From positions 1,207,386-1,271,385 of the forward strand of contig CAJINV010000016.1 in NCBI GenBank assembly GCA_905178155.1: a stretch of DNA of 64,000 nucleotides, in the 5' to 3' direction. This document shows, one piece after another, positions 784-31,379 of this stretch (position 1 is the first letter of the stretch; each line of letters starts with the position of its first letter). Both the position numbers and the translations under genes were made by a program. The notes below the pieces were generated by a model. The model saw only the letters and a list, made by a program, of their open reading frames with translations, was not told the DNA's origin and ran no database searches. The stretch is from Amoebophrya sp. A120 (Eukaryota > Protista > Dinoflagellata).

Positions 784-3700
784 ATGAGCATGAGCCCCAT
801 CAATGTTCTGGGACCTAGTGGGTCCGCCGAGTTGCTGGCTGCAGGTGGTTCTGGGCGCGGCCGGGGAGCGGCGGCTACTACGGCGGGAGAAGTGCAGCTG
901 GAGATCGATGGTAGTGATAATATCAAATGTAAAAGTGTCTGGGTCTGGAAGAATCCGAACTTGTGATGCTGCATTTGGATTCCAAAAAAATCTGTATTGC
1001 ATGAGTACCAAAGGGAATGCAATTTTTGCTGCGCTGAGAAGGCATTTGTCATGCGGAATAGGCATCAAGAAGCCCTCAAAAAATCTGTATTGCTAGGGTA
1101 TGCATCACAGACATCATGGCTCATGCAAAACGTGCATGACAAGTGTCAGAATCTTCCAGACCCAGACATTTTTGCAGTTGATAGATAACTATGCGTCGCA
1201 AAATGATGAAGACGAGCAAGAAGAAGTCGAGCGGTTATGAAATGCAAAAGCATCGTACTAGTATGAATCGCATTACAAATTTGCTCAGCATGAAAAATTT
1301 AGTTTGTCATGCTGTTTTACCTTGGGATGGAGATTTGTGATGCATGGCTGCGATTATAATGCACGAGTGCGATACTTTTGCACAGAATAGCGGTTTCAGT
1401 GCAGCAAGTTTGTGAAAATCCTTGGGCTATGGATTGCAAATATGTCTGGGTCTGGATCTGGAAGAAGACAAACTTGTGATGCGCATTTTAGAACACCGAA
1501 AAATCTCTCATGCATAGGTAGCAAAAGCTGCCCACTTTCTGTCACCAAAATGTGGGATTTATCATGCGGATTCGGCATTGCGGAAGCTTCTCGAAACCTG
1601 CGATGCTAGAGCTTCCATGCCAGACCTTCTGCGTCATGCAAAGACAGCATGTCGCTTCCAGACCCAGACACTTTTACACTTGATATGGGCCGGGCATCAT
1701 GGTTTGCCTCGCGGACACCGACGGCCCTTGTCTGGTCACGGCTGGAGAGAGCGGATCGCTGTATGGGTATTCCCTTGTGTCCTGCCAAATTTTGTTAATC
1801 CCCATCCTCTTCGCCGCACAGGAGCTCACGGTGCGACTCTCGCTTTTGACCAACAAGGGGCTCACGGAGCTGATTCGCATCCACTTCGGGGTGTTCTGGG
1901 CCCGGCTCGCGTGCGCCGTGCTCGTGATTACCTATGGTTTGCAAAAGCATTGTAGTTGTACTAGTATAAATTGCATTACCAAGCATTACAAATTAAATTT
2001 GTAATGGTGAAGATTTATCTGCAGAAGTAATGCATAAACGCAATTACTACGAGTACGATACTTTTGCGCAGGATATTACCTGCATCGCCGCCATCATCTC
2101 CGAGCTCGCCTGCATCGCCCATACGGATTGTAAAAGTGTCTGGGTCTGGAAGAGTGGAACTTGTATTTGTAATGCTGTCTGCGGATTCTAAAAATATCTG
2201 TGTTGCATGAGCAGCAAGAGGAGTCAGCTCTTGGCACGCGGAGAGGGCATTTCTCATGCGTAATTAGCATCAAGAAGCTCTCAATCTGTGATGCTAGCAC
2301 CATCATCACAGACCTCACGGGTCATGCAAAATGTGCATGACAAGCCCCGACTCTTCCAGACCCAGACACTTTTGCAGTTGATAGCCCAAGTTGGGGAACT
2401 ATTTGGGGTTCCCATGTGGATCTCCAGTCTAATAGTGGTTTTCCTCCTCGTCCTCATCGTGGCGACCGGTACCTTTCGCCGGTTGGAGTTGATTGGCGTG
2501 GCCATGGGCAGCACGCAGGTGTTGTTTTTTCTCGTCATGTTTCTCGTGCGGCCAGACTGGGAGGAAGTTGCGCATGGGCTGGTCGAGACGCATTTCGACG
2601 ACGGAAAGTGGCTGAAACTCCTCGCAGCCAACATCGGCGCGGTTATCATGCCCTGGATGCTCTTCTACCAGCAGTCGGCTTGCTGCGAGCGGAAGATGAC
2701 GGTGCGCGAGATGATATCAAATGCAAAAGTGTCTGGGTCTGGAAGATTCTAAACTTGTGATGCTGTCTTTGGATTCTAAAAAAAATTGTATTGCATGACC
2801 ATCAAGAGGACTCCAGATTCTCCTACGCGGAGAGGGCATTTCTCATGCGGTGGAGGTATCACAAAGCCCTCTGAAAATCTGTGATGCTATGGCATGCATC
2901 ACAGACATCATGGCTCATGGAAAATATGCATGACAAATCTAGAAACCTTCCAGACGCAGACATTTTTGCATTTGATAGATGACCTACGCCCGGCTGGACA
3001 CCGTGGTCGGCGCCAGCATCGCGCAGGGCGTCATGATTGCCATGGTGATTGCCATGGGCGTATGCATTGCAAATATGTCATCTGGGTCTGGAAGGATGCA
3101 AGGTTTGTCATTGTCATGCTTGTCTAGCACGACTCTACGCTCTGTATTGCGTGCCCGCAAAGAACTTGTTCTCTCTCCTGTCATGCAAAAACGAAGTTTC
3201 TCATGCGGATTACGCAACTCAGCCCCAACGAAAAAACTTGTCATGCTTGGCTGTGCATTACAGTGTGCGCATTCTTCCCTGACATGCATCACAAGTTTCC
3301 AGACCCAGACATAGTTGCATTCGATAGGGCGCGACGCTGTTCAAGCAGAAACCGCAGGAACTGAAGGACGTCCCGCAAATGGTGGACGCGTTGAAGCCGT
3401 CGATGGGCTCCACAGCCGCAAAATTACTGGTCGCCTTCGGTGCCACCGGGGCAAGTTTAGTAGCCGCCCTGGTCGTGGCGATCACGCCGGCGTGGAGCAT
3501 TTGCGAGTTGCTGGGCCACGAGCGGTCACACGACAAACCCTACAGCGAGGCCAAGAATTTCTACCACGCCTTTGCGGCCGTCTTGGTCGCCGCGTTTGTG
3601 ACCACCGTGTGCCCCGAGGTCGGGGACCGCGCCTGGATCATGATCCAGGTCGAGATTTTGAACGCATTGCTAATGCCCGTAGTCGTCGGCTTCATCTTCT

Positions 3701-3822
3701 TCCTGGCCGCGAAGCGGGGGGTCTTGCCGGAATCATACCGGCTCAAAGGGTGGTATAGGATTTTGCTGGGGATCGTGTTTGGTATTTGCAGCATTCTGTG
3801 CGTCTACGCTGCATTTCTGTGA
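784..3822 (+). CDS. NRAMP/MntH-family divalent metal transporter; 8 exons, all 7 introns are TIR introners
   Basis: Removing each element plus one 5-bp DR gives one continuous frame: MSMSPINVLG...KILGPGIMVCLADTDGPCLVTAGESGSLYGYSL...AQELTVRL...LAANIGAVIMPWMLFYQQS...ARLDTVVG...VYAAFL*. The GPG..D.D.G, QE...RL and GA.IMPW motifs are typical of NRAMP. Confidence 0.92.
921..1183. mobile_element. Introner family A (263 bp)
   Basis: TIR TATCAAATGTAAAAGTGTCTGGGTCTGGAAG ... CTTCCAGACCCAGACATTTTTGCAGTTGATA; DR GATAA; removal restores GSDNYASQ. Confidence 0.95.
1236..1389. mobile_element. Introner family B (154 bp)
   Basis: TATGAAATGCAAAAGCATCGTACT ... AGTGCGATACTTTTGCACAGAATA; DR GCGGT; restores EVERFQC. 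Confidence 0.95.
1428..1685. mobile_element. Introner family A (258 bp)
   Basis: Family A TIRs; DR TGGGC; restores the conserved ILGPGIM. Confidence 0.95.
1933..2075. mobile_element. Introner family B (143 bp)
   Basis: Family B TIRs; DR TTACC; restores LVITCIAA; no GT-AG possible at the junction. Confidence 0.93.
2122..2383. mobile_element. Introner family A (262 bp; starts TAC)
   Basis: Family A TIRs; DR GCCCA; restores CIAQVGEL. Confidence 0.95.
2715..2977. mobile_element. Introner family A (263 bp)
   Basis: DR GATGA; restores REMTYARLD; closely similar to the reverse complement of 59032-59306. Confidence 0.95.
3061..3326. mobile_element. Introner family A (266 bp)
   Basis: DR GGGCG; restores AMGATLFK. 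Confidence 0.95.
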
Positions 3823-4476
3823 TAACACTGGCGCGAATAAATCTGATGATCTTACATTTGAATTTTATTTTTGAGACTCCGGCTCCACGATCGATGAGCG
3901 TGAGTTTTCGTAAAAGATAAGTTGAGTCGTCGTTTCCAAAATAGAACTACAATGATACTTTTTTCGCTTCGCCTCAATCATTGTCACGCTCAAGTAGCTC
4001 TACGTCAACATGCCTGCAATGTTGTATCCTACTCACAACAAGCAATAGCGTAACCCAATCTACCTGTCTGAAAAACACTTTGAGTGGTTCGTTCTATTTT
4101 CGACGCCATGCTCTGCAACTAGGAAAGCTACCACTGTTGATTTTCGTCCTATCTATGTACTAGTTTGAGATTTTGTATAGGTAAACCAGGACAGAAATTG
4201 GTAAATAACCGACCTCGAGGACATTGTCATCCGAAGAACCTTTTTCGCATAGAAAAAAAACCATCAGAATCTTCACGACCGGATGAGGAAAGAACCCATC
4301 AGAATCATACCCATAATACATACATGTGTCTCATTCAATCAATATCAAGATGAATGTTGACATCGATAATTAGAATCCGATCGAACCAATCCTGAGATTA
4401 TTCCATCATGAGAATCAAATCTTCTGATAGATTGAAATCGATCATTTCTTTTTTTCTTGTCATGTCTGGGCATGAT

Positions 4477-5530
4477 CCCTCCAGCCAAACCATAGGCACG
4501 CACGGCCATACCACAGGCGTGCAGGAGTGACATCGGCTACGGCGTGGATGTCCGTGCGGTGGTGCCCAAGTCATAGGGCGCGCACTTCACACAGATGCCC
4601 CATCATAGGCACTAGTGTGCCCACTCACAGGCGCGCATCGGAGCAGGAGCCGGCGCCTCAGCGCAAGGAGCCTAGGCAACTGAGGAAGCCGCCGGAGATT
4701 GCACTAAGACAGAGCGGGCGCCGCACCTGCTGCGCTTGCCTTCCCCCTGTCACGCCGGTACGCCCGAAAGCCGTAGCACTACGGCCCAGCTTGAGAAGAT
4801 CCGAGAAGCCCGCGCGCCGTCAGTGTCTCAAGCCCCCCGTCCAAGGTCGGACCGGGACGAGACCCGCGGGGGATCGAGAAAAGCATCCGGGCCCGCCCAG
4901 GGGGTGAGGTAGTCGTTAGGGCGCAGAGGGTGTCTTGGTGTGTTGCAAGGAAGGCGGGCGGGTGTAGCAGGTAGCGCCGGCGGGCCTGAAGGATCGACCA
5001 AGGCAGCAGGGACGCCAGCAGCGAAGTCGGGTGGGAAGCTGGTATCCAACGCGGCGGGGCAAAAAAGGGTGGCAAGCCCCGCCGCCCGCTTTGCTAGGTA
5101 GTGCCACGCCATAGGCCACAGCCCTAGCCGCCACACCAAGGCGTAACGGAAGAGAGCGGAGCACCGGCAACACAGGAGCCGGGACAGGCATAGCCCAAAC
5201 CCCCGGGAGCTTGTTAAAGCACACAATAACCGAGCCACAATACCGGGCCCCATTCCAAAGCCAGCGCAAGCGGGCCGCCCGGTCCAGCACCTCGCCATGG
5301 GTGCGGGGGGTCTTCAGTAGTCAAGCAGGACATATCGCTGAGCCCCGGCGAGTAAGGCCACGACGGCAGGATAGGATACAGCATTGCAGTGCTGTCCTGC
5401 ACCCCCCCCCCCCCCCCATGTATGCAGGTCCCATGCCTGGCGATCCTGGTGTGGTGCGGCAACTGGGGAAACGCCTAAGGGATCTTGGTCCGGCAGCATC
5501 CATATTGTACACCTAGTATACCTAGAATAA
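4477..5530 (+). mobile_element. GC-rich retroposon-like insert with a ~15-bp TSD
   Basis: ATGTCTGGGCATGAT at 4462-4476 recurs as ATGTCTGG|ACATGAT (6888-6895 joined to 9536-9542) once later insertions are removed; 3' end ACCTAGTATACCTAGAATAA; sharp GC contrast with flanks; no recognisable ORF. Confidence 0.55.
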
Positions 5531-6880
5531 TCAGGCGGTAGCGCCCCGGGCGGATTTTCCTTCTAAAAACTGGCTAAAATTCCCGGTCTTGCGAAAATTC
5601 GCAAAGGCGCGCGCCTGGTTCCGCCCGCCCTCAGTTTCCTGCCGCCGCGCCCTTGTGTGAGCCCTGGCCCGATTCCGAAGCGCCAACAGGCCCCCGCCCC
5701 TGGCGCTTCGGCTTGGCGCCTTCCCCGCTTCCCTTTGCCCCTCTCACTCGCACCGGGCGCGCAGAAAATTTAAAATTTAAAAATTGGCCCCGTTTCCGGG
5801 GAAGTTGGCTTTTGGTTGGTGTGCCGGTTGTCGGTTGGTTCGAGTGTGTTGTGCATGGCGGCCCTGCCAGGGTGTGTAGGCTTATGTCGCAGGCAGGACC
5901 GTGCCGGGGGAAGCGTCGTCACGCCTTGCTTGTGTTCGGGGCCCCCGAACAAAAGTAGGGCGTGTTGTAGGTGGCGCGCTGTAGAAGAAAATGTTCGAAC
6001 CTGGTGTAGGAGATGACGTTCGACATGCATGTCGAACATCATCTCTAAACACCGCCGACATTCGGCTACGCTGGGTGGGAATGTTTTGCCTGATCCAGTT
6101 TTAGAAGATCGAAGCGATGTCCGTTTTCGGCTTCTAAAACCGGTCATGTTCGGCTTCTAAAATCCCGGCCGCGCGTCTCCTAAAATCACAAAGCAGGCAA
6201 ATCCTAAGGGAATTTGCGTGCTCAGTGATTTTAGAAGATTTTTAGAAGCCGGACATGGTCCGGGATTTTCTTATCTCCGGATGAGAATTAGAAGAAAGTT
6301 AGAAGATTTTTTAGAAGGCATTTTAGAAGCCTATTTTAGAAGCCATTTTAGAAGGTTTCTTAGAAGCCATTTTAGAAGGCATTTTAGAAGCCATTTTAGA
6401 AGGTTTTTTAGAAGCGAAATTAGAAGGCAGGTGGGGAAGAAAGGGCCGCGATGAGTTCGGAAGCGAAGATTAGAAGTCAGCTCCGCAGTTGGCGTCTAGT
6501 ATTCGCTTCGAATCCGATTTTGAGCGCTATCCTGTGTTCTTATTTTCGCTTGGCCGGCGCGCTCGAGGTTTTCATCGAGTACCACGTGGGGCCCGGAAGC
6601 TTCACAAACCAAATCGCCCCGCCTGTGGTTCTCGTGTATCGTAGTCGGGGCGATGGGGTGGTGGTTGTGTCGGTTGCGTGGCAACGTATGCCCGGGGCCT
6701 TTCGGGTGGCAGGGTGGTGGCCTCGGGTCTCATCGTTGTGATGCAGGTTATTTGCCCTGCTGTGGGCGTGGGGGCAGGGTTGTGTTGTGGGCAGGAGATT
6801 CGGGAGCGGGAAAATTTGAAAACACCGGGAAAATTAGAGGTGTTTTAGAAGCAGAGGCCGCCCGGGTGTTTCCCGCCTGA
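5531..6880. mobile_element. Non-autonomous TIR element, copy 1 (1.35 kb, TCA...TGA, 6-bp TSD GAATAA)
   Basis: TCAGGCGGTAGCGCCCCGGGCGG ... CCGCCCGGGTGTTTCCCGCCTGA; GAATAA at 5525-5530 and 6881-6886. Confidence 0.88.
6295..6430. repeat. 12-bp tandem array (nnnTTTTAGAAG) inside copy 1
   Basis: Repeated GCCATTTTAGAA/GGCATTTTAGAA units. Confidence 0.85.
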
Positions 6881-7654
6881 GAATAATATGTCTGGTCAGG
6901 CGGGAGCACCCCGGGCGGATTTTTTTTCTAAAATATGGCTAATTTCCCCGGTATTTCAAAAATTCCGGCCGCCCTTTGTGGGTGGCCCCGTCCGTCCCCG
7001 TCCGGAGCCCGTCGGGTGAGGCCGGTCGGCCGGTCGTGTGAGTGTTGCGTCATTATCTGTCCGTGGTTAGCCTGCGCGCAGGCCAGAAGCCGCGGAAGCC
7101 AGGCGGCCTCCGCGGTTTCTAGGCTTTTAAAATTTAAAAATTTGGGACGTTTTCCGGGGTAAAGCGGGCCGCGCAATTTGGTGGGCTCGCGTTGGTGTCT
7201 GGCGTGGTTGGTTTGCCGGCCATTTGTTGTTTCCTCTGGGTTAAGTCGTTGGGGTTGTCTTTGCCTTGGATCCGCCGATCCATCCGACATTGCGCATGAT
7301 TCTGCGCGTTACCATTTCAGGTCGTGACGTCGTGTTGGTCTGTGTCTTTTTTGGGGAGAGGGAGAGGCTGTACATCAGGGACATGATGTTCGACATATGT
7401 CGAGCACCATCTCCCGACGTCGCCTGCAGTCAGAGATTTCAGGGCGCGAAATCTCTGACAGCCAAGTTCCGGAAGATCGGAAAGACCTGTTTTCGACCTT
7501 CTAAAACTGGTCAATCATGCTTCCGAAATGCCGGCCGCGGTCCTTCTAAAATCCGAAAACTCGGACTTTCCACGGGATTTTGCGCTACCGGGCATTTTAG
7601 AAGATTTTTAGAAGCCGGGCAGGTTCCCGGATTTTTCGTCTTCGGACGGAAAAT

Positions 7655-7810
7655 TAGAAGTTTTTTAGAAGTGGCTTTTAGAAGCCACTTTTAGAAGGTC
7701 ATTTTAGAAGTGGCTTTTAGAAGCCACTTTTAGAAGGTCACTTTAGAAGCCCACTTTAGAAGCCCATTTTAGAAGCGAAAATTAGAAGGTTTTTTAGAAG
7801 GAAAATTAAA
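7655..7810. repeat. 12-bp TTTTAGAAG tandem array inside copy 2
   Basis: GTGGCTTTTAGAAGCCACTTTTAGAAGGTCA repeated. Confidence 0.85.
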
Positions 7811-8029
7811 AGCCACTCCAGAAGCGAAAACCTGCGGCAAGAAGTCATGTGGGGAGATGACTTCTAGGATTCGCTTCGGGAATGACGTCGCAACCTGCGC
7901 TCTGATTTTCGCTCGGGGGCCGGGGCTCTGGGATCTTCTTTGGAGAGCGCCTGTGGGGTGTCTTGTGAATCGGGTTGGGTTGCGTGGGGTTTTCATTTAT
8001 CGCAACCCCACCGAAGGGGCGGCGTTTGC

Positions 8030-9312
8030 TCATGCGGAAAACGCCCGGGCGGTTTGCCTTTCTAAAAGACTTCTAATTTTTCCGGTTTTGAAAAAAAAAA
8101 CCCTACCCATTTCTCCCATCCGCGGATCGGGTGGGAATCAAATCAAAAAAAGGCGCCCACACTACCCAGAAAGAAAGAGGAGGAGAGAGAGATGCCGGCC
8201 CGGCAACGCAGACAACCCGATGGCAGGAGACTTACGATGAGGCGACGCGGCGCAACAACAAATCAAGACAACCACTCCCAAACCAGAAGCCCGCCCTTAC
8301 GATCGCAACACGCCCTTCCAACGCGGCGATCGCAACAACCTTTGAAAGCCCGACCTTTAGTTCCCGCCTCTACAACCCTTCTCTAATTTCCGCCTCTAAA
8401 GTCGGCCTCTAAAATGGGCCTCTAAAGTCGGCCTCTAAAACCGGTCTCTAAAACCGGCCTCTAAAGCCGGTCTCTAAAACCGGTCTCTAAAACCGGTCTC
8501 TAAAACCGGCCTCTAAAGCCGGCCTCTAAAAGCGGCTTCTAAAACAGCCTCTAAAAAGGCCTTTAAAATGTCCTATAATTTCGTCCTCTAAAAATCCTCT
8601 AATTCTTCCGCCCGCATGGCAGTTTTCGGACTTCTAAAAATCCTTTAAAACTGCCATACAGGCGAAATCACACACAAAATCGCGATTTTGTGATTTTAGA
8701 AGACGAAATAGAAGATCTCGGGACGCCAAAACCGGAAGCGGAGCCGGAAGATTCCGGCTCCGCTTCACGCGAACATCCAGTGCCGGACATCCCGAAATGT
8801 TTGTTTCGGACCTGCAGGAGATGACGTTCGTGTTCGAAACCACGAACATCATCTCCCGGCCCTCGACAAACGATCTACTTGCTCGAGCCAGCGGCGCATG
8901 TGCGGGGATGCGAAGAGGCGCAGACCACTTCGCATCTCCAGAGAAGACGGGCAAGGCCCACGCCTACCACCCACATTGTGCGCCACCCTGCAATGCACAT
9001 CTACACCCACCTACAACCACACTGCTTTTTCAAAATTGTGCGGCGCCACTTTACCCAAAAACCAGCCCTAATTTTTAATTTTTAAAAGCGCACGGGCCGA
9101 ACCCCAAGAGACGAAGAAAGAGCGCGCTGATGTTGTGTCGGGGAAACGAACAAAAGCCCCACCCCCCGGGGGACTTCGGAGGAAAACAACCACCACACGC
9201 CCACGCTGTGGGCCCAACACGATCAGAAGAAATGGGCGCCCGGAATTTTTTAAATCCCGGAAAAATTAGCGGGATTTTAGAACGGAAATCCGCCCGGGGT
9301 GTTTCCGCATGA
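8030..9312. mobile_element. Non-autonomous TIR element, copy 3, inverted and nested in copy 2 (6-bp TSD GTTTGC)
   Basis: TCATGCGGAAAACGCCCGGGCGG ... CCGCCCGGGGTGTTTCCGCATGA; GTTTGC at 8024-8029 and 9313-9318; internal array is reverse-complemented. Confidence 0.88.
8385..8600. repeat. 12-13-bp CCTCTAAAACCGG tandem array inside copy 3
   Basis: More than 10 visible units of (GG)CCTCTAAA/TCTCTAAAACC. Confidence 0.85.
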
Positions 9313-10244
9313 GTTTGCATGGGTTGCGCAACACAGGGCAGTTGGGATCTTTATGATGCCGGTTTTTTTGCCAGCAGGCATTCGGGGTGGCCGCCGCGGT
9401 CACCCCTACTGCTTGCTGGCATTGTTGTTCCCCTCCCCATTCCCGACGGCGGCTTGCAGAAAAAAATGAAAAACCGGGAAAATTAGAAGTAGATTAGAAG
9501 GCGGAACCGCCCCGGGCCTTCCCACCTGAGTCTGGACATGATATAAATTATCGCTTTGGCTCGATCTGAGATTCTCTTTCATCATTCTCATCGTCTGCAA
9601 ATCGATCATTTGTTCTTCGAATCTATCATAAATCCTGATCGATGAGATTGAGAATTTCTGAAATTCTAATTTTTTTGAATTTCTCTTCATCAGATTGAAA
9701 ATTATCTCATCGATCGATTCAATTTCAGGATTCCAATATATGATCGATAATTCGAGAGAGATATCATTGGAATAAAATGAATGATAGATGATCTAAAAAT
9801 TTGGTAAATTCTTGAAAATTTCGAAAATAAAATAAAAAAAATTGAAAAAAATTGTGAAATAGGATGAGACTTCAATCATTGGAATCCAAGATCTCTCTCG
9901 ATAAGATGGATTGATATCAGAATATATAAAAATATTTTAAATATTTAATATTTTGATGAGAAATTTTCTCTTGATGGGGATTCTTTATCAGATTTGTTTC
10001 CTGGAAGATATTGTAAAAAAAATCGATGAATGAAGATCCTAATGAAATCAACCAGAAGATTTAGATTTTTCAAATTTTTCCATAAATTATTTTCATGAAA
10101 TCGGATTATTGTTCTGATCTTTCGAAATTTCTAGAAAATCTCATGGAATTTTTTCTACAATCGAATTTTCGATATGAATCTTATCTCATTTTGAATGGAT
10201 ATTCATAATATAAACATGAGTCATATCTTCGATTATGTCTTCAA

Positions 10245-11405
10245 CGGTCGTTAGCATACAGAAGGGTGAATTTCCAGTGAATTTGTATTGCGTGGCATGA
10301 TGCATGAATTAATCTTCAGGTGCATGCGAAGAACTAGAACACGAGGACAACATACAAGAAGCCAGCGCGCCTGCTTGGCTGGTGGCGCTTCCCTCCTGTG
10401 GACGCTTGCCGCTTGTTGCCCAAAGAGGCGCACCTGGTGGACTGCGAAGCAACGCAGGTGGCTTAGGGCGGTCTTACAACACGACGCTGCATGATCCGCA
10501 GACTCGATAGTGGCGGATCGACCGGGACGAGGGCTATGCCTGTAAAGGGGGTCAAAGGTACTAGCTCAACATGTCAAAATAGAGAAGTCGCGTCCCGGGT
10601 TGTGGCTGCCTCGGCTTGGATATCTGGAGACAGGTTGCTACGGATGCTAGCATCGCCTGCTTTGCTCTGTAAGTAACCTCCTCCCAGCTGTGTTCCTGCC
10701 TCATCTTGGTCGGTTCCTCTAGTAGTCTTCTTTGACGTGACCCCCAGGTCAGGAATTCTCTTGGTGAATTTTGAGGCTTTGTCTTTTTGCGAAACTTTTT
10801 TGAAGCCCCAAACTCGGAGTTTCTCACGCGCTAGCGAATTTTGAACAGGCACCGGAACCCAAAATTCACCGGCGCCCTTTTCAAAATTCACCCGAAAATT
10901 CACCGAGCGCCCCTTTTCGACCGTGATAAGCAAACTTTGGCGCAGAAAAGTGCTCAAAAATGTGCACAGGTAGGCCCTGGGGAGTGGGGCCGAGGGGAAA
11001 AGACAAGCGCCCTCTGTTGCCCTCAGCCCGTCTATATTCTGCCGAAAAGGCCTGGGGAGTTCACGCGCCTGCCGGGTAGAGGCGTCAAAGCTCTCGGCCT
11101 GGTCCTTTCACTCGTTTTTTTGCGCCTTCTTCCCTAATTGCATGTGCTTCGCAGCCTTTCTTTTTAGCGTCTTTGCCGCGGCTGCTGCAGTGCTCTATGC
11201 GAGCACAGGGAGACGAATAGACATGGCCAAAGAACGGCACCCAGGCCATGCCTAGAAGCTGCCCGCCGCATAATTAAGCCTTGACTTCTGCGGTGTGCAG
11301 AACCCACTTCCCAGAAGGGCAAGAGGGATAATGCCCCGGCGGACTCATCTGCAATCTGTCATGCAAAATTCACTACAAATTCGCCACTTCTCATGCTAAC
11401 GGGTG
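10245..11405. mobile_element. Degenerate TIR element, possibly TTAA-type (piggyBac-like)
   Basis: Imperfect ~40-bp IR CGTTAGCATACAGAAGGGTGAATTTCCAGTGAATTT versus reverse-complement CGTTAGCATGAGAAGTGGCGAATTTGTAGTGAATTT; flanks TCAA / TTAA; internal AAATTCACC repeats at 10860-10905. Confidence 0.55.
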
Positions 11406-11572
11406 TTAAAGCTGTAAATCTTCGATTTCCAAGATATATGGAATATTTGTTTTTTCCACGACAAAAACATCAAGAATTTTCTATTACATAAATTTCGAAT
11501 CATTGGAATCTTTATGATCCATCGAAGTCTGAATCTCAGGAAAAAGTTCAAATTGTGATGGAAAAAAGAGAA

Positions 11573-12382
11573 CATAATCGTCAGGCCACATAGTCGTCAG
11601 GGGCTGGCAACCCAGGATGGGCCGACGGTAGTGGTGATGTATGAAAAACTGCGATACGATGGTGATACAGACCGAAAGCGGACTAGCGTACGGCGCGAGT
11701 TGCAACAGCCCACTGGGCACACGGGCGGACCACTACTGCGGTGAGTGAAGTTATCCTGGAGGCGCGCACAGGTCGCGATGCAAAGTAGTGATAGTGCTGC
11801 CCTAAGCTCTTCGACAAAAAATTAAAACCAAAACCTCGGTCACAACAAGAAGTAAGCTTTCGTTCTCAGCAAGAATTTCAATTTCAACAAGCGTAAGACA
11901 GGCTCAAAAAGCACTGCAGCGTAAGAAAGGACCAAGAGGCGGACAACAGCAAAAAGCTCAAAAAAAGAAAAAACAAAAACAAAAACTTCCTTTTCGACTA
12001 CGTACAGCAAGACTTTCACTTCAAGTTTTCTCTTCACAAAAACAGTTTTTCGCAGCGACCGACTAGTTTTAGCTTCTTTTCAACAACCTTTTTAGTACTT
12101 TTTCAGAAACAACAGCTCCGACGTTGAGGCAGCTTTTACTTTTACAACAAGCAAGTAACCTTTGGACTTTCAAAAAAAAAAAAACTTCAACCTTTCTCTT
12201 TACTTCTTTTACAGTTTTGTTTATACAGCCTTAAGCTCTCGCTTCTAGCGACAGTTCCTTTTTCTAAGGCAGAGGCCAAAGCAGCTCTGCCAAGTTGTCC
12301 TTTTTCTTGAAATAGCGCTAACCATGTGAGAGGAAGCACAAATTTCCAAACGGTTCCACATGACCTTCATCAACAAACAAAC
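11573..12382 (+). mobile_element. SINE/non-LTR-like retroposon with an 11-bp TSD and (CAAA)n tail
   Basis: AAAAAAGAGAA at 11562-11572 and 12383-12393; ends CAACAAACAAAC; GC-rich ~230-nt head. Confidence 0.6.
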
Positions 12383-12554
12383 AAAAAAGAGAAGAGATTG
12401 ATTCTTCATTTTTTGAAATCTCATATCGATATTGAATAGTTGATGTAATGTCAGTTATAGTGATGTTTTGGGAAACCGTTGCCAATTGTTGGTCCATAAA
12501 TATGATTCTTCGAATTTTTTTTTCAATGAAGTCCCAATTGAAATGATCGAAAAT

Positions 12555-14339
12555 TCACAATCCTACCGCTTTCATTTCCGCCAGCATTTTGTTTTCAATT
12601 TTCGTTCTGAACAATTCTTCTTCCCGCTCATAGTCTTCCCGTAATTTCCCAATCGCCTCCTCCTTGCATTCTTTCAGTTGTTTCTTCTTCACCAGCAGCA
12701 TTTTTTTCAAGTTGGAAAGTTTCTGCATCTTCTCCTCCACCTCCAGAAGTTGTGTGTCCGCCTTGGTAAGTTGTGGTTGATACAACAGCTCCACTTCGCT
12801 GACATGTTTGTTCAGTTTCGTATGTTCGTGGTTTTGAAAGTCTTGCAATTCTTGTTGTAATTTGTGATTCGCGCTTGTCTCCAATTGTTTCCGCTTCTGG
12901 TCCTGCTTCCAGAGTTCAAGTTTCTCCAGATCGCGGGTCAGTTGTTTCTGCTGCTCACGGACCGATTGTTCGAAGCAGTTGATTTGCTCAAGATCTCGCT
13001 CGGGGAACGAGAAGAGCTGCCGGTTGTGTGAAGAAGGTGTCTGTGGCCCGTGATGTTTTTGGTCGCCGGCGGACGGAGCACCTGATGCGTTGTTCACGAC
13101 TGGGATATAGACCTCCGCAGGACGAGAGGTGTATCGCGATGCAGCTAGTACAGCAGGATGACCGCTCGCCTGCCCGCGGAGTAGCATGTCTCTGACGTCA
13201 AAGGCTTGCTCACTACTAGAAGGCGCCATATTGCTGCTGGGAAAAAACGGCGTCGGCGATGCTCCGTTGTACACATCGCCACTAGAAGCGGAACTGTCTT
13301 CCGGATGAACAGGCATGCCCAATAGTTTCGCTTTCGCGCTGGTTCTCTGATCATCTGCTTCCACCGCTCTCTGTTGCGCCAGCCGCATCACATCCGCTGG
13401 CGTTTCTAGCGTGCGGCAGGATGTCCGGAGAGGAGCGGCGTCGCACAGGTGCATGTTTTGCGAAGAGCAGTGTAGGCCAAGCGGAGACTGCTCGCTCGGC
13501 GGATTATCTTCACCTTCTGTTTGCATGGTGCAAGGACTTCTCGGACCTGCTTTCGCGGATTTGCTTTTGCTTTTTGCAGTACAACCTCTACTGGTTGTTC
13601 TGTTTGCGTCACTGCCGCCACTACCAGCCTTGCGGGTTGTGGTTCTTGCGCTGTCAGTCTTTGCAGCTCCTGCGGAAGATGCAAATCTCATTCCGGACGC
13701 ACTGTTTGGTCGACTAGCTACGAACGATGCGCCTTCCCTCGTCGTCCGGGGCGTGATCTTGCTCGTAATTCTGCCACTCGAGGAGGACGCTGGCGCTTGA
13801 CCATTAGAACTAGTACTCGGCGTGATGGAAGTTGTAGCATTGCGATCTGGTGCAGCAGTCACAGCGGCTCGCGTAGTTGCCGCAGCAGGCGTTGCTGTTG
13901 CAGCTCCGGTCGTGCTGTTGATATCGCCTTGCCGAGAAGCTAGTCGAGATGCAGATGTTGCCACAGCGTTTGCGATTGCCGACGACGCAGGCCACGGATT
14001 GGCGTTCGCTTTTCTCGCGGCGCCATTAGGTGTACCAGCCCGGGAGGGCAACACCGCCACTGGGGGTGCTCTCTTGATGATACCCAGGTCGTGTTCCACT
14101 CCCACAACAGATCCAGAGGGCGCAGTTGCCGACACAGCTGGCGCAGGAGCTGCGGCGCCACCAGATGAGTTTGAGTTTGCGTCCCCGGCTCTGTAATTTC
14201 TGCTCTGCAATCGCAATAAGGACTTCCGGGCCCGCTCCCGCAGATTTTCGGCCACCGAGGCGGGACGTTGCACGTCTGGATAGTCAGGGTTGATGTGGTC
14301 GTCCTGATCTGGTGGCATCGCTGCTGCTGTCGTCGACAT
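12555..14339 (-). CDS. Hypothetical protein: Ala/Ser/Thr-rich disordered N-terminus, C-terminal coiled coil
   Basis: Uninterrupted 594-aa ORF with ATG; E/K/Q/L-rich heptad-like C-terminus. Confidence 0.8.
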   Translation of the reverse strand: MSTTAAAMPPDQDDHINPDYPDVQRPASVAENLRERARKSLLRLQSRNYRAGDANSNSSGGAAAPAPAVSATAPSGSVVGVEHDLGIIKRAPPVAVLPSRAGTPNGAARKANANPWPASSAIANAVATSASRLASRQGDINSTTGAATATPAAATTRAAVTAAPDRNATTSITPSTSSNGQAPASSSSGRITSKITPRTTREGASFVASRPNSASGMRFASSAGAAKTDSARTTTRKAGSGGSDANRTTSRGCTAKSKSKSAKAGPRSPCTMQTEGEDNPPSEQSPLGLHCSSQNMHLCDAAPLRTSCRTLETPADVMRLAQQRAVEADDQRTSAKAKLLGMPVHPEDSSASSGDVYNGASPTPFFPSSNMAPSSSEQAFDVRDMLLRGQASGHPAVLAASRYTSRPAEVYIPVVNNASGAPSAGDQKHHGPQTPSSHNRQLFSFPERDLEQINCFEQSVREQQKQLTRDLEKLELWKQDQKRKQLETSANHKLQQELQDFQNHEHTKLNKHVSEVELLYQPQLTKADTQLLEVEEKMQKLSNLKKMLLVKKKQLKECKEEAIGKLREDYEREEELFRTKIENKMLAEMKAVGL

Positions 14340-25500: not shown

Positions 25501-28500
25501 TCCTTGAAGTGGATCCAGAACGTTCCATCATCCGCTTTGTTGTGCGCTCCTAGCTATGAATTGCAAAAATGTCTGGGTCTGGAAGATTGCAACTTGTCAT
25601 GGTAAATCTGAATCATGCAAAAATCTGTGTTGCACAAAAGCTGTACACTTTTGACCAAGTTGGAAGGGAGTTTCTCATGCAGGATAGGCATGGCAGAGAC
25701 CTCGCAGAGTCTGTCATGCTATGTCCAGCATTCTAGACCTCATGGGTCATGGAAAATCTGCATGACAAGTCTACACTTTTCCAGACCCAGACATTTTTAC
25801 ATTTGATACTAGCTTGTCCCGCAACTCCGTTTTTTTCCCAAACGGAATCGCGCCCTGCCACTTTCTATGCATTGCAAATATGGCTGGGTCTGGAAGATTC
25901 TTACATTTGTCATGCATGTCTGACATGACTCGAGAATCTGGGATGCATGGGGACGAAAAGGCTCTCTTATCTGTCACGCAAAAACGTTGTTTCTCATGCG
26001 GAATACGCAACACATAGCAGCTCAAAAATGTGTCATGCTTGGCTGCGTACTGCAGTCCAGCTATTATCCACTTTTAGCATGATTACAAGTTTCCAGGCCC
26101 AGACATATTTGCAATGCATACTTCCCGCTCGCACCGTAGGGATTTCTCAGGCGGATCAGCTGAAATCCCTGTTGCTCCACCATATCCAAAATCCCGTACG
26201 GGCAGCCCGGGCAGAGGCCGAAAGTGTTCCCCTTCTCCTTGCAGTAGATAGACACTAAAGATCCGGTGAAAAACTTCTCCTGCAGTTTCGCGAAATCCAG
26301 CTTCGCGCCCGGGTCGGTTTGGCGCTCCATAACACCGCCAGACATTTGGACGAGGGCGGCTTCGTAAGCTGGTTGTTTGGATGATCATGTTGGGTACGGA
26401 AGAGGAAGAAGTGAAGGTCGTGGTGCTGATGCCAAATTGAAATCGTACTACAAAACAAGCGTTCATGCAAATTTTCTACGTGGAGTAATCTACAATAACA
26501 TAGGAAGATAAGTACCCGTCATTCCATTTGCATCGAAATAGTTCACCATCGCCTCGTAGCTGGTGTGCATTTTCGCAAAGGCCTTCTCCAGATACACGGC
26601 CCAGAGTTCAGACGGCGGCGCCCCATTCGTTTCTAAATCCGAGGGGATGAACGAGTCCAAGGCTATTGACTTCCACTCGAACCCGTAAAACAGCGACAAA
26701 ACCAGCAATCCGCTCTGCTTCCAGTGGGAGTTTAAATCGTTGGAAAATATCCTGTATCCTGTGTAAAAGTATCGCACTCGTATAGCAATCACGCATTACA
26801 AATCTTTTTCTTAAGGTAAACCCGCATCACAAATTTTTTTATTTCTCATGCTGAGAAAATTTGTATAATGCATTTATACGAGTAGGAGTACGATACTTTT
26901 GCCGTGCATATCCTGCCGAGCAAGTCCGGTCTGGTAGAAATCACCGCAATCGCCGCTTTCAGCCAATTCGACTGCAGCGAGTGTGCTGGTGCGTCGCTGC
27001 ACGGCTTCTTGTCGGGGAAGATGTTGACTGGGGACTCTTTCTGCAGTATCTGCGGTGACCGGGTGAAACTGTCAATTTCACCGGATTTTAGGCTGGCCTC
27101 GCAGGTGTACAGAGAGCTGACCGCCGGGGGGAAGCGGGGGTCCTCGAAGGGCTTGCCGGTGGAAACGGATTTCTCGAGTATCCTCTGGAGTTCGGGAACG
27201 GTGGGTTCTGGGATGCCCTCGGCTGTGGAGTGGTTTGTGAAGATCATCATGCGGGTTTTTTATTGCAATATGTTCGTCTGCATGCCGTTCTTCTACTTGT
27301 TTTCGTTTTTGAGTGAGCTGAACGTGCACAACAAATATATCGTCAGATTACCTATGCTGGAGGTACCTACATGAATGAAAGCAAGAAAGCATAATTTATT
27401 TGAGAGTACCTGGATTCGGGTATCTAACTGTGCTTCCAACTTTTTCTTGCCTCTTTTTGTCGACCTCTTTCTTTTATGCATAGCAAAATATTATCGCACT
27501 CGTATAAATGCATTACAAATTTCCTCAGCATGAGAAAGAAACTTTGTAATGCTGATTTGCCTTCTTAACAGAAAGATTTGTAATGCATGACTGCAATACG
27601 AGTACGATACTTTTGCACAGGATATCTTTGCGGCTTTTCCGCGTTGAATCGACTGCATCTTTGTTGCCGCGGCGTCGCCCTTATGCTCTGCAAAAGTATC
27701 GTGCTCGTGTTGCAGTCATGCATTACAAATTTTTTTTTCAAGGTAAATCCGCATGGCAAATTTTATTTCTCATGCTGAGGAAATTTGTAATGCATTTATA
27801 CGAGTACTACGATACTTTTGCAGTTCATAGCCCTTCGCACCCAGCCCTGCCGCCCAGGCGGCGAGCGCTTCCGGTGACTCGTCGGAACTCGGAATGGCTT
27901 CCGCTTGGGCCTCTGCCGCTTGCTCGGCTGCGGCGGCCTAAATTTGTCATGTGGAATAATTGCATGATGAAAATGATATTGCAGTAGAACTAGAAGATCG
28001 AATTGTTGTTGCATCCATTATGCGCGTGGCAGGTGCACCATGAGTGTCCACGCAGTCAAGTAGGGTGCACTAAGTTTAGTTAGTTGTAATATCACCTACT
28101 TTAATACTCGCAAGCATTTTGCGCATGACAGAGGTCGTCTGTCTTGCATGTTTTGCAACACATTGCGTATTAATAAAAACAAATAATACATCTGCCAACT
28201 GTTTCCTCAATTCCGCCACTTCCTTTTTCGCTTGTTTCGCCCGCATCCGTGACTGCAGCGCCGTCGCCGCTTGATCTTATCCTGTGCAAAAGTATCGTAC
28301 TCGTGTCGTACGAATTGCAAATATGCATGACAAATATTTTCCCTAGGGCAAAACAGCATTACAAGTTTCACTTTCCTTCTTGCCAAAATTTGTCATGCAA
28401 TTTATACTACTAGTACGATGCTTTTGCAATGCATAGATCTCCCCTCTCCCCCATTTCTGCGGTCCACGCAGCTAGGGATTCTATCCTGAGTAAAAACGTA

Positions 28501-30295
28501 CCCACGCCAGAGTTGTAATGCAAATCTGCATGCTGAAAATGTTTCTCATGCGGAGCTCCATGAGAAGCATTTTCTAGTCGTGTTTTGCAATTTGTCATGC
28601 TCCAATCAGCATGGTATGCTAGATCTGTGATGCTGCTGAGCTAGCTGAAACAGCACTATGCTACGAATCCAAATTTGTCATGCAAAACAGCCAAAACTTG
28701 TGGATTTGTCTAGCCGATTCCCCATCTTGACTCTGGTGTGGGTACGTTTTTACTCAGGATAGATTCTGGTGAATCGCCATCCTCCTCTGCTTTTTCCTCT
28801 TCCTTCTCCGCCGCAACTAGCTGCGCCCGGAGCGCGTCCACCTCCTTCTTTGCCATCTTGGCGCGCTGTCGCGCCTGCATTTTCGCGGCAGCGGCATCTC
28901 CCGCGGCACCGAGCTCGGCGGTCCATTTTGCGAGCTCTTCGGGGGATTCGGGGTCCACCTCGACAGCTTTTACTGCTTCAGCGACGGCAGTTTCCTCTTT
29001 CGTCTCGGCTTGCGTCAGCTGCTTTTTCAGCTCTTCGACCTCTTTGCGGGCCTGTGGTAGGGTGTGAAATTCAGAGTTTTTGTTTTTGGTATAGTACAAC
29101 ACAGGGTTACGTATTAACGTTATGCAACATGACAACAAAGAATCTCGCTGCATGATGATGATTCGCAATACCTGCTTTGCCCTTTGCCTAGCCTGCATTT
29201 TTGTCGCAGCAGCGTCACCCTTGGCGCCAAGCTCTGCTGTCCACTTTGCCAGCTCTTCAGGTGATTCGCCGTCCCCTCCGTCGGCGCTAGCGCTGCCAGC
29301 GGCCGCTGCTTCAGCCTGTGAAGTGATGCGTTTAAACAGTCTCTGGTGTCACGATCAAGATGAGCATGCTCATGATTCCAATTCCAATTTCAGCTAAAGC
29401 CCAGTATAAAATTTGCAACAAACTACATTCACCACGTCTACGTCACATGATGATGATAAGTACCTCCGCAATCTTTGCTCTTATTTCCGCCACCTCCTTC
29501 TTTGCCTGTTTCGCCCGCATCTTCGCTTGCATTTTCGTGGCTGCTGCGTCACCCTTATCCCCCAGTTCGGCGGTCCATTTTGCGAGTTCCTCGGGGCTGT
29601 CTGGATCGACCGCGGCCGCTGCATCCGTGACGGCCTTGTCTACGGCCGTGGTTTCTTCTGCCTGGGCGTCTGCAAGCTTCTTGCGCAGCTCGTCGACTTC
29701 TTTCTTGGCCTGATAATTGATGACGTGTGAATGGGAGTGGTGCACAACACACAAGAATACTAGGTTCGCGTTTCTTCAAAATCTCAATGATCCCGAGGAC
29801 GTACACATTTCACACGACCCATGCATGTTTGTAAAGTGTTGTGTTGATGCAAATGAAACAATACCTGTTTTGCCCTCTGTCTGGCCTGCATCTTCGTTGC
29901 AGCAGAGTTGCCTTTTTCGCCGAGACCCTCAGTCCATTTTGCCAGTTCCTCTGGTGATTCACCGTCACCGGCGGCTGAGGAGCCCTCCGCGGCATCGGCT
30001 GCTACCATGGCCGTGTTCTCAGCCTGATAGTGCAGATAAGTTTCTGTTCCACTCATGCAAGAAAAGCTTCACAAAGTTCCCAATGTTCCATGACCATGGA
30101 AAACACCATCATCCAACATCAACAAAAAAATATTCGCAGTACATCTGCCAGCTTTTTCCTCAATTCATCCACTTCCTTCTTGGCCTGTTTTGCGCGCATG
30201 CGGGATTGCAGGGCCGTCGCAGCGGCATCTCCCTTCTCCCCGAGTTCGGCCGACCAGGCCGCGAGCTCCTCGGGAGATTCTCCCGGCTCGGCCAT
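22564..30295 (-). CDS. Calpain-like protein: 7 N-terminal IQ-like repeats, probably inactive CysPc domain, 3 calpain domain-III (C2-like) repeats
   Basis: Repeats SPEELAKWTAELGDKGDAAATKMQARQRAKQAKKEV; FEDPRFPP, ELWAVYLEKAFAKMHTSYEAM, LIRLRNPYG, DDGTFWIHF; three NPQ motifs and GFYTILPCTYDPGKCGEF; 10 introners and many GT-AG introns. Confidence 0.85.
22625..22777. mobile_element. Introner family B (153 bp)
   Basis: DR TGCTC; restores VYVSTEDE. Confidence 0.92.
22848..23162. mobile_element. Introner family E (315 bp)
   Basis: TIR TATCAAAATGAAAAATCCCCCCGCCCCATA; DR AACCC; restores the conserved DAGFYTILPCTY. Confidence 0.9.
23496..23757. mobile_element. Introner family A (262 bp)
   Basis: DR CGGAA; restores SEWTPDSAGGC; opposite orientation to its host gene compared with 921-1183. 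Confidence 0.93.
25555..25808. mobile_element. Introner family A (254 bp)
   Basis: DR CTAGC; restores RDKLGAHN. Confidence 0.93.
25866..26120. mobile_element. Introner family A (255 bp)
   Basis: DR CTTTC/CTTCC; restores NPYGASGKWQG. Confidence 0.92.
26755..26910. mobile_element. Introner family B (156 bp)
   Basis: DR TCCTG; restores LLGRIFSN. Confidence 0.93.
27475..27624. mobile_element. Introner family B (150 bp)
   Basis: DR TCTTT; restores AAKKEVD. Confidence 0.92.
27682..27829. mobile_element. Introner family B (148 bp)
   Basis: DR GCCCT; restores GAKGDAAATKMQ, matching the uninterrupted repeats. Confidence 0.94.
28278..28435. mobile_element. Introner family B (158 bp)
   Basis: DR GATCT; restores ERGDQAAT. 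Confidence 0.93.
28482..28761. mobile_element. Introner family D (280 bp), near-perfect 31-bp TIR
   Basis: TATCCTGAGTAAAAACGTACCCACGCCAGAG with 1 mismatch; DR GATTC; restores SPESLAAW. Confidence 0.93.
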
Positions 30296-31379
30296 GATTG
30301 AGGAGTTCACTACTTCTCAAAAGCCGTGCTTCTATGGTAGTGTTTTTGGAAGATGAACTAGGAACGGTATCGGATATCTACGAAACCAGATATGTGGTTG
30401 AAAAACATACACTTCTGAAAGTTACGAATGGTATTGGGATGCTGTGCGAAGCGATAAATTTTCGAAGCCGCTCATCGTACGTCTTCCGAGAGCACCAGGA
30501 GTGCTCAAGCTCATCTCTCTTCGCCTCACGTTCGAACGAATGATCTACTTACTAACTTATTCATTGGACAATGCGAAGCTAGTACTCCTCGAGTCTGTTC
30601 AACAAGAGAGCGGTGGATAAATGCGGCTCATACAACACCACATACGAGAAAGGATCTGCATAAAAACGTGGAAAACGAATTACTCGAACAAAAGCAGCAT
30701 TCTACCACCTGGTGTAATCGAGCAGCATGTCGTCGTCGTGGTTGATGGTTGCGCCACAGCCAGGAGCTCATGTGTTTCGTTTAGTCAACATGCTTTGTTA
30801 TTGTTTCTTTGGAGGTGACGGCAAACATGTTGTAGATACATTTTTTTCGTCTTCTGCAGACGGCATGGGCAAGACCGATGAGTTCACCAGCACAAAATGA
30901 CTTTTCGTCACGGATGATTCTCTACAGAAGTGCGAATCGATAGAGACAGCATGCGAAGAGGTCATGCTGGAGGAAAGGAGATGGATCTTCAGAAATTTCG
31001 TCGCCGCTTGGAGCTGGCGCCCCCGGCGTTCTCGTTTTCGTTGCGCGGTTTGCTGCCACCGGCCGAGCGAAACCCGCCACCTCGCTGCGCCTTCGTTCCG
31101 GAAGCTCTGTCGCAAGCGGGATCAGTGGTTCCCCGTTCCTGCGCTATTCGCAGCGCTTCGGTTAGGAGTATGCAGCGCAAGGTCGTGTCGGGATCTGAAA
31201 GAGCAAAGGAAGTAGACCTGTATTTGTATTTCTTGTTGGGAGCATACCATAGGCATAGAGATGCAAACCCTCGAAAATTTATATTGCATGATGACAGGAG
31301 TAGGAGACCATCGAGCAGCAACATTGTTTGTGGTGCCAGAATCATGCCGCGCGGCGCACTTGAGGCGCGCCGCATACTT

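Follow-up and report, generated by a model that had tools for sequence, protein, structure and literature searches.

A cytosine-depleted, TpC-sparing strip at a convergent junction of gene blocks in Amoebophrya

Introduction

In Symbiodinium, GC content drops at the boundaries where unidirectional gene arrays converge and not at those where they diverge (PMC8110479; restated in PMC11572971). Such boundaries may be encoded in the sequence, and the main text of that report gives neither a sequence context nor a cause for the drop (PMC8110479). In Breviolum, 5hmU is described as enriched at array boundaries without sequence preference (PMC11071213). Protist methylomes are described with methylation in CG, in CGC/GCG or in all contexts, and not at cytosines preceded by a purine (RpC) (PMC12344493, 10.1101/2024.01.08.574619). 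The genomes of two Amoebophrya strains carry introners and are each organised into 516-587 co-oriented gene blocks (PMC7789003).

Here we describe a 64-kb stretch of Amoebophrya DNA (the window) in which two gene blocks converge on an AT-rich strip depleted of RpC. As at the dinoTAD boundaries of Symbiodinium microadriaticum and Breviolum minutum, also of the dinoflagellate lineage, GC content dips where unidirectional blocks converge (PMC8110479, PMC11071213). Those boundaries are reported as an averaged dip of ~6-10%, in main texts that give no dinucleotide context (PMC8110479, PMC11071213), whereas GC at this strip falls from 50% to 27% within ~1.2 kb and the loss is almost entirely of non-TpC cytosine. 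The strip is the form that the low-GC convergent boundary takes in Amoebophrya. Its cytosine context was not found in the literature searched (mostly open-access papers), which listed no account of strips depleted of RpC either at strand switches or for Amoebophrya.

Results

The convergent junction

The initial annotation had raised the co-location of the strip with strand switches, and the strip does lie in the gap at the only strand switch of the window, which is convergent. The plus-strand block ends in view with an Nramp gene (3 matches in a homologue search), the stop codon of which is at 3822. The minus-strand block consists of long open reading frames over ~50 kb, from 12555 to the end of the window, and the Pfam matches to WW, kinase, papain and UvrD all lie on the minus strand. 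Between the stop codons of the Nramp gene and of a 594-aa gene is a gene-free gap of 8.7 kb. The features of the junction are as follows.

2291..3822, plus strand: 3' part of the Nramp metal-transporter gene (Pfam PF01566 matched in two exons), interrupted by introner-type repeats
4330..4459, no strand: left backbone piece, with a weaker margin to ~4200; loss mainly on the minus strand; in a single-copy contig (3292-4506)
4460..9541, no strand: composite insertion, repeated and GC-rich; inverted ends imperfect; no target-site duplication found
5531-6880, 6896-9529 and 8030-9312, no strand: nested non-autonomous TIR elements within the composite, each with a perfect 6-bp duplication
9542..10243, no strand: core strip, RpC-depleted, TpC-sparing, AT-rich, single-copy and non-coding (from composition, shuffles and depth)
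10245..11405, no strand: multi-copy TIR element with inverted ends, a TCAA/TTAA duplication and normal RpC
11410..11572, no strand: third backbone piece, flanked by the TTAA-type and tailed elements
11573..12382, plus strand: repeated tailed element (A-rich tail, 11-bp duplication); AT-rich, RpC not depleted
12394..12555, no strand: right backbone piece, directly next to the minus-strand gene's stop codon; C lost chiefly from the plus strand
12555..14339, minus strand: 594-aa gene that ends at the strip; its residues 1-462 share 76% identity with a relative's protein

Overall, the window has a GC content of 50% and a CpG observed/expected ratio (o/e) of 1.03. Dispersed repeats with inverted ends break up its genes, and at least two introner families with such ends are found inside genes (700-64000), as described for Amoebophrya. 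A minus-strand gene at 28480-30300 contains repeated exon units of ~320 nt. A pattern scan of metagenomes yielded six loci (L001-L006), of which only L006 is related to the window: it shares the window's intron repeats and a 98.8% identical copy of 8030-9312, and one of its proteins has its best match in Amoebophrya sp. A25 (89% identity). Positions 1217-1497 of L006 match the inter-unit repeat of the 28480-30300 gene at 87.5% identity. BLAST gave no match between L001-L005 and the window. Two RNA read sets of the same species label placed 93 and 2 reads on the region, all of them partial, which says nothing on expression.

Composition of the strip

The RpC-depleted, TpC-sparing strip is a real and strong feature. 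The initial annotation had stated that C survives only in TC or TCC and G only in GA or GGA at 9661-9780, and this is borne out for all 16 plus-strand C (15 in TC, 1 in TCC) and all 15 G (13 in GA, 2 in GGA). Over 9543-10240, the 187 cytosines of both strands are preceded by T in 147 cases, by C in 21, by A in 13 and by G in 6. The resulting 19 RpC sites compare with 93.5 +/- 6.8 expected and a minimum of 66 in 20,000 shuffles. Two further statements of the annotation, that ApC, GpC and GpT are rare and that CpG is retained, hold after correction for composition, with o/e values of 0.19 for AC/GT and 0.24 for GC, far from 1, and of 1.44 for CG; the corresponding values are 2.15 for TC/GA, 1.28 for AT, 0.48 for TA and 1.05 for CA, and TCG occurs 33 times. 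GC content is 27% (0.265), against 50% in the window. GATC and TCGA, which had been singled out as common, show no excess as motifs (18 GATC against 19.9 expected from dinucleotides; 30 TCGA against a trinucleotide expectation of 30.1).

The ratio C/(C+T) depends on the preceding base. After T it is 0.43 in the strip and 0.47 in the rest of the window; after A it is 10-fold down (0.05 vs 0.49), and it is also lower after G (0.14 vs 0.56) and after C (0.27 vs 0.48). The proposed C-to-T erosion at RpC was thus right in that TpC is spared and too narrow in that CpC is lowered as well: what holds is a sparing of TpC rather than a loss of RpC alone. The base at -2 of the surviving RpC sites is A or T in 12 cases and C or G in 7, in DNA that is 73% AT. 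AT richness alone is not the cause, since the AT-rich tailed element next door has a C/(C+T) of 0.79 after A. Among 835 windows of 300 nt drawn from the window and L006 (84 kb), the eight lowest in RpC all overlapped the four depleted pieces.

A short-read-type contig (run X1, 9464-10262) covers the strip at depth 41 with 0 differences, similar to the neighbouring genes, which argues against a base-calling artefact, although run X1 may be the assembly's own source. A seawater run matched the strip only over ~35 nt, with unlike flanks, and was excluded. We found no 3-base (codon) periodicity in the strip, and a stable fold was rejected (z -1.3). A reading as a 6mA/ApT island was rejected as well, 6mA being described downstream of start sites (PMC12695648). 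AA/TT dinucleotides at 9561-10236 have a weak ~10-bp periodicity, noticed post hoc, which was reached by 6 of 500 Markov controls.

Continuity of the backbone and the inserted elements

A similar texture had been claimed for three other pieces of one backbone split by insertions, and each of them is indeed RpC-depleted relative to its own shuffles: 3 RpC against 20.2 expected at 4330-4459, 11 against 23.8 at 11410-11572 and 13 against 24.2 at 12394-12555 (5,000 shuffles for each piece; proportion of shuffles as low as observed or lower <=0.0008). The four depleted pieces sum to 1157 nt and are separated by transposons of normal composition. Target-site duplications are found at two of the three insertion junctions, and therefore the core, third and right pieces were formerly contiguous and were later split by transposons. 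The third junction, that of the composite insertion (4460..9541), has no such duplication, and here the claim of a single backbone is less secure; the left piece was likely once continuous with the others. With the insertions removed, the gap is ~1.7 kb long and the loss is deepest at its centre. Depletion tapers at both ends with no sharp stop: there is no loss in the last Nramp exon, which ends ~400 nt before the depleted zone, or in the first 400 nt past the Nramp stop, and on the other side the loss reaches the stop of the minus-strand gene. No comparable strip is present in the 50-kb co-directional block.

The inserted elements of the gap keep normal RpC. Element 10245..11405, which we take to be piggyBac-like, has a summed contig depth of 1376-2727, compared with ~41 in unique DNA, and 11573..12382 appears to be non-LTR/SINE-like. 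The three nested elements of the composite and L006 8756-10038 form a family of mutually nested, non-autonomous TIR elements of ~1.3 kb with ends TCAGG/TCATG, perfect 6-bp duplications and internal arrays of 12-13-bp satellites. An assignment to hAT, with 8-bp duplications, was rejected in view of the perfect 6-bp duplications. L006 8140-11350 holds another nested cluster of transposons, which has a different short satellite. It lies between co-directional genes, and no RpC-depleted strip accompanies it.

The adjacent gene and strand polarity

The loss of C extends into synonymous sites at the 3' end of the 594-aa gene, on one strand only. The match to the relative confirms the frame to residue 462, and codons 463-594 rest on the open frame and a coiled-coil-like composition. 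The relative's protein (P0005) diverges at residue 462 and then resembles the start of the window's introner repeat, which suggests an introner in the relative's gene that is absent from the gene in the window.

A third-position G in this gene is a plus-strand C, and when the next base is a pyrimidine this plus-strand C is preceded by a purine. In codons 463-594 the synonymous G:A ratio at third positions is 10:26 before C or T and 39:17 before A or G (p=0.0001). Before pyrimidines the ratio is 19:34 in the last 582 nt of the gene, as compared with 781:538 in 15 other open reading frames (p=0.0009); before A it is normal in these 582 nt. With only K, E and Q codons counted, the ratio before pyrimidines is 5:21 vs 304:249 (p=0.0004). 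The best suffix p value is 0.0001 for the 594-aa reading frame and at least 0.011 for the 15 control frames, which are raw and may include intron sequence. C after purines on the sense strand shows no such loss (9:4 over the final 282 nt).

Strand symmetry, another claim of the initial annotation, describes the core (TC 75 and 72 on the two strands) and fails in the margins. In the left margin AC persists on the plus strand and GT is lost, and in the right piece the reverse holds (AC:GT 13:6 vs 1:10, p=0.002, on small counts); the window background already favours plus-strand GT over AC (2407:3087 and 132:178, ~1.3 in both blocks). If real, this polarity means that on each side C is lost from the strand that is non-template for the polymerase coming from the opposite block.

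Models of cytosine loss

Simulated erasure of 92% of RpC from the whole window gave a GC content of 0.271 (observed 0.265) and a TC/GA frequency of 0.093 (observed 0.107). In bits per base, RpC erosion fits the strip at -1.68, uniform C>T change at -1.80 and no erosion at -1.95, followed by CpA-type (-2.01), CpG (-2.09) and TpC-type erosion (-2.34), the worst. The addition of partial CpC loss to RpC erosion improves the fit slightly (-1.66), and GpC-only and ApC-only erosion were rejected (-1.94 and -1.76). The RpC simulation overpredicts TpA (0.114 vs 0.064) and ApT (0.215 vs 0.173) and underpredicts AA/TT (0.107 vs 0.144), that is, A/T runs; this misfit persists in equilibrium simulations.

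Discussion

The level of TpC, which is at background, the match in GC content between the RpC simulation and the strip, and the one-strand loss at synonymous sites favour mutation, and we consider a mutational origin of the strip, all mutational readings taken together, to be probable. The most independent of these lines of evidence is that from the 594-aa gene. Among such readings, we tentatively propose, with a confidence a little short of even, that the strip arose by transcription-linked single-strand deamination of non-TpC cytosines, as judged from the one junction examined. Polymerases of both blocks would read past their meeting point, and transcription is predicted to overlap and to end at the strip. 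Wherever a polymerase overruns the meeting point, its non-template strand would be exposed and would therefore be hit: a putative deaminase-type enzyme, with a 5' preference of A >= G > C >> T, would convert exposed single-strand non-TpC cytosines to thymine over the long term. Under read-through of this kind, loss would fall on the plus strand to the right, on the minus strand to the left and on both strands in the core, as seen. Counting against the proposal are the misfit of the simulation in TpA, ApT and A/T runs, the normal RpC of the inserted elements, and the differences between element copies, which run both ways at GpY and include two TpC sites (see below). The inserted elements may be too young for erosion to be visible, and the cause would be mutation rather than selection. 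Single-stranded non-template DNA is described as deaminating more than 100-fold faster, and since non-template DNA is more prone to deamination, the polarity of the margins fits deamination by read-through (PMC12139591).

AID-type deamination acts on single-stranded DNA at WRC hotspots, with A or T preferred at -2, and APOBEC3-type deamination targets TpC. The strip resembles AID-type action in its preference for a purine 5' of C (C/(C+T) 0.05 after A and 0.14 after G vs 0.43 after T) and in TpC being a poor target. The margin polarity would be compatible with transcription and, like the one-strand synonymous loss, fits deamination of a non-template strand, and a replication origin predicts the same. 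In contrast to AID-type action, the change persists as a fixed compositional island of the genome, and the enzyme is putative in this lineage.

The initial annotation had set the strip apart from CpG decay, fungal RIP and APOBEC activity, and the contexts and model fits do exclude all three. Decay of methylated CpG is contradicted by the CpG o/e values of the strip (1.44) and of the window (1.03), and APOBEC3-type deamination by the fact that TpC alone is at background and gives the worst-fitting model. RIP is a homology-dependent process, for which a TpCpG form is described in Pucciniomycotina (PMC3318451). The strip shares with it dense C>T change on both strands in a fixed context and an AT-rich product. 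Unlike RIP, it affects single-copy DNA (depth 41) and spares repeats, the multi-copy insertions retaining RpC; the context is set by the 5' base, and TCG and CpA survive (33 TCG, CA o/e 1.05), the CpA model fitting less well than no erosion (-2.01 vs -1.95). The suggestion of a genome defence against repeats is unsupported for the same reason, erosion having struck single-copy DNA and left the RpC of multi-copy insertions in place. The annotation's interpretation thus stands in part, and its other proposal, selection on a boundary sequence, is retained as a minority alternative (see below).

A different mutational route, which we regard as unlikely, is that a cytosine methyltransferase marks RpC, with GpC as its main target, in transposon nests and in junctions free of genes, with deamination of 5mC to follow, perhaps through 5hmC to 5hmU, which would be read as T in these cells. 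It draws on copies of the inserted elements. In the intergenic copies (window 4460-12382), transitions are enriched ~2-3-fold after G (GpC/GpT), in both directions. Among the differences listed (32 of 325 contig differences), 12 of 20 transitions follow G (expected 26%, p=0.0015). Three of four non-satellite alignments, which share sequences, have the same bias (16/51 vs 26/163, p=0.025; 10/30 vs 20/127, p=0.038; 4/229 vs 2/683, p=0.038), and the fourth does not (5/24 vs 22/131, p=0.57). Repeats inside genes have little of it (0.094 vs 0.072-0.085, odds ratio 1.2, from non-independent pairs). The bias may reflect GpC methylation of repeats and hints at a GpC-directed process on intergenic repeats; it does not demonstrate ongoing erosion. 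It is non-directional, the window having T or A at 7 of the GpY differences and C or G at 5, and it is confined to GpY, yet ApC is the most depleted context of the strip. At two TpC sites the window's element copy has T and the L006 copy has C. The enrichment of 5hmU at gene-array boundaries described in Breviolum is in line with such a route (PMC11071213), but dinoflagellate 5mC is summarised as mainly CG (PMC11572971) and CpG is not depleted in the window (o/e 1.03).

Selection may instead have favoured physical properties of the strip (bending, binding of nucleosomes or DVNP, 5hmU in TpC/TpA) that would suit a terminator or a chromatin boundary, the dinucleotide pattern being the outcome; this seems to us improbable. 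The strip lies exactly at the convergence, its AA/TT dinucleotides have the ~10-bp periodicity noticed post hoc, and erosion leaves the excess of A/T runs and the low TpA unexplained. However, TpC is at background relative to TpT and has therefore not been gained, the signal reaches synonymous positions on a single strand, ~7 kb of insertions have been tolerated in the strip, and its fold is ordinary (z -1.3). An early report placed 5hmU in TA/TC contexts, as cited in a Breviolum study that itself describes 5hmU without sequence preference (PMC11071213). Base J and 5hmU at kinetoplastid and dinoflagellate array boundaries are, like the strip, tied to the ends of unidirectional arrays; unlike it, they are thymine modifications for which this source reports no signature of cytosine loss (PMC11071213), and the strip is known from sequence alone.

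The polarity that we attribute to read-through could instead come from a replication origin or centromere, with C lost through exposure of the lagging-strand template and not through transcription. An origin in the core would predict the same pattern, plus strand on the right and minus strand on the left, and the 8.7-kb gene-free gap gathers transposons as do the trypanosomatid centromeres described at strand switches (PMC13508446). We nonetheless think this quite improbable: satellite-bearing elements also lie between co-directional genes in L006 and so do not mark a centromere, and with 516-587 blocks reported per Amoebophrya genome most junctions cannot be centromeres (PMC7789003).

Finally, an insert of foreign origin with such a native composition, whether from a virus, an organelle or an old transposon, is very improbable, since AT-rich DNA in a 50% GC genome and a 128-codon frame with sub-threshold Pfam matches (Transposase_31, E=0.0016, 18.5 bits vs a cutoff of 21; NDC10_II, E=0.015) must be set against graded margins, a signal that enters a host gene, the absence of codon periodicity, and phage and plasmid BLAST searches and viral-contig scans that returned no match. 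Rfam gave six sub-threshold matches in the window and none in the strip.

The strip agrees with the dinoflagellate convergent boundary both in location, the blocks converging on it, and in its GC dip (27% vs 50%), which is partly masked at the scale of the whole gap by insertions that raise the average. It is probably what an undescribed local process of mutation has left behind, and such a process would help to explain why junctions of this kind are GC-poor in dinoflagellates. A broader proposal, which we advance with considerable doubt, is that Amoebophrya, and perhaps dinoflagellates generally, possess an undescribed cytosine-modifying enzyme that acts where opposing units end, spares only TpC, writes such a strip at every convergent junction and causes the boundary GC dip. 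If general, the strip would indicate a new specificity of a cytosine deaminase or methyltransferase and would provide a marker of gene-array ends that can be read from sequence. It would also mean that a termination zone rewrites its own DNA and the codons nearby. These observations bear on how dinoflagellate gene arrays end and on why convergent boundaries are GC-poor.
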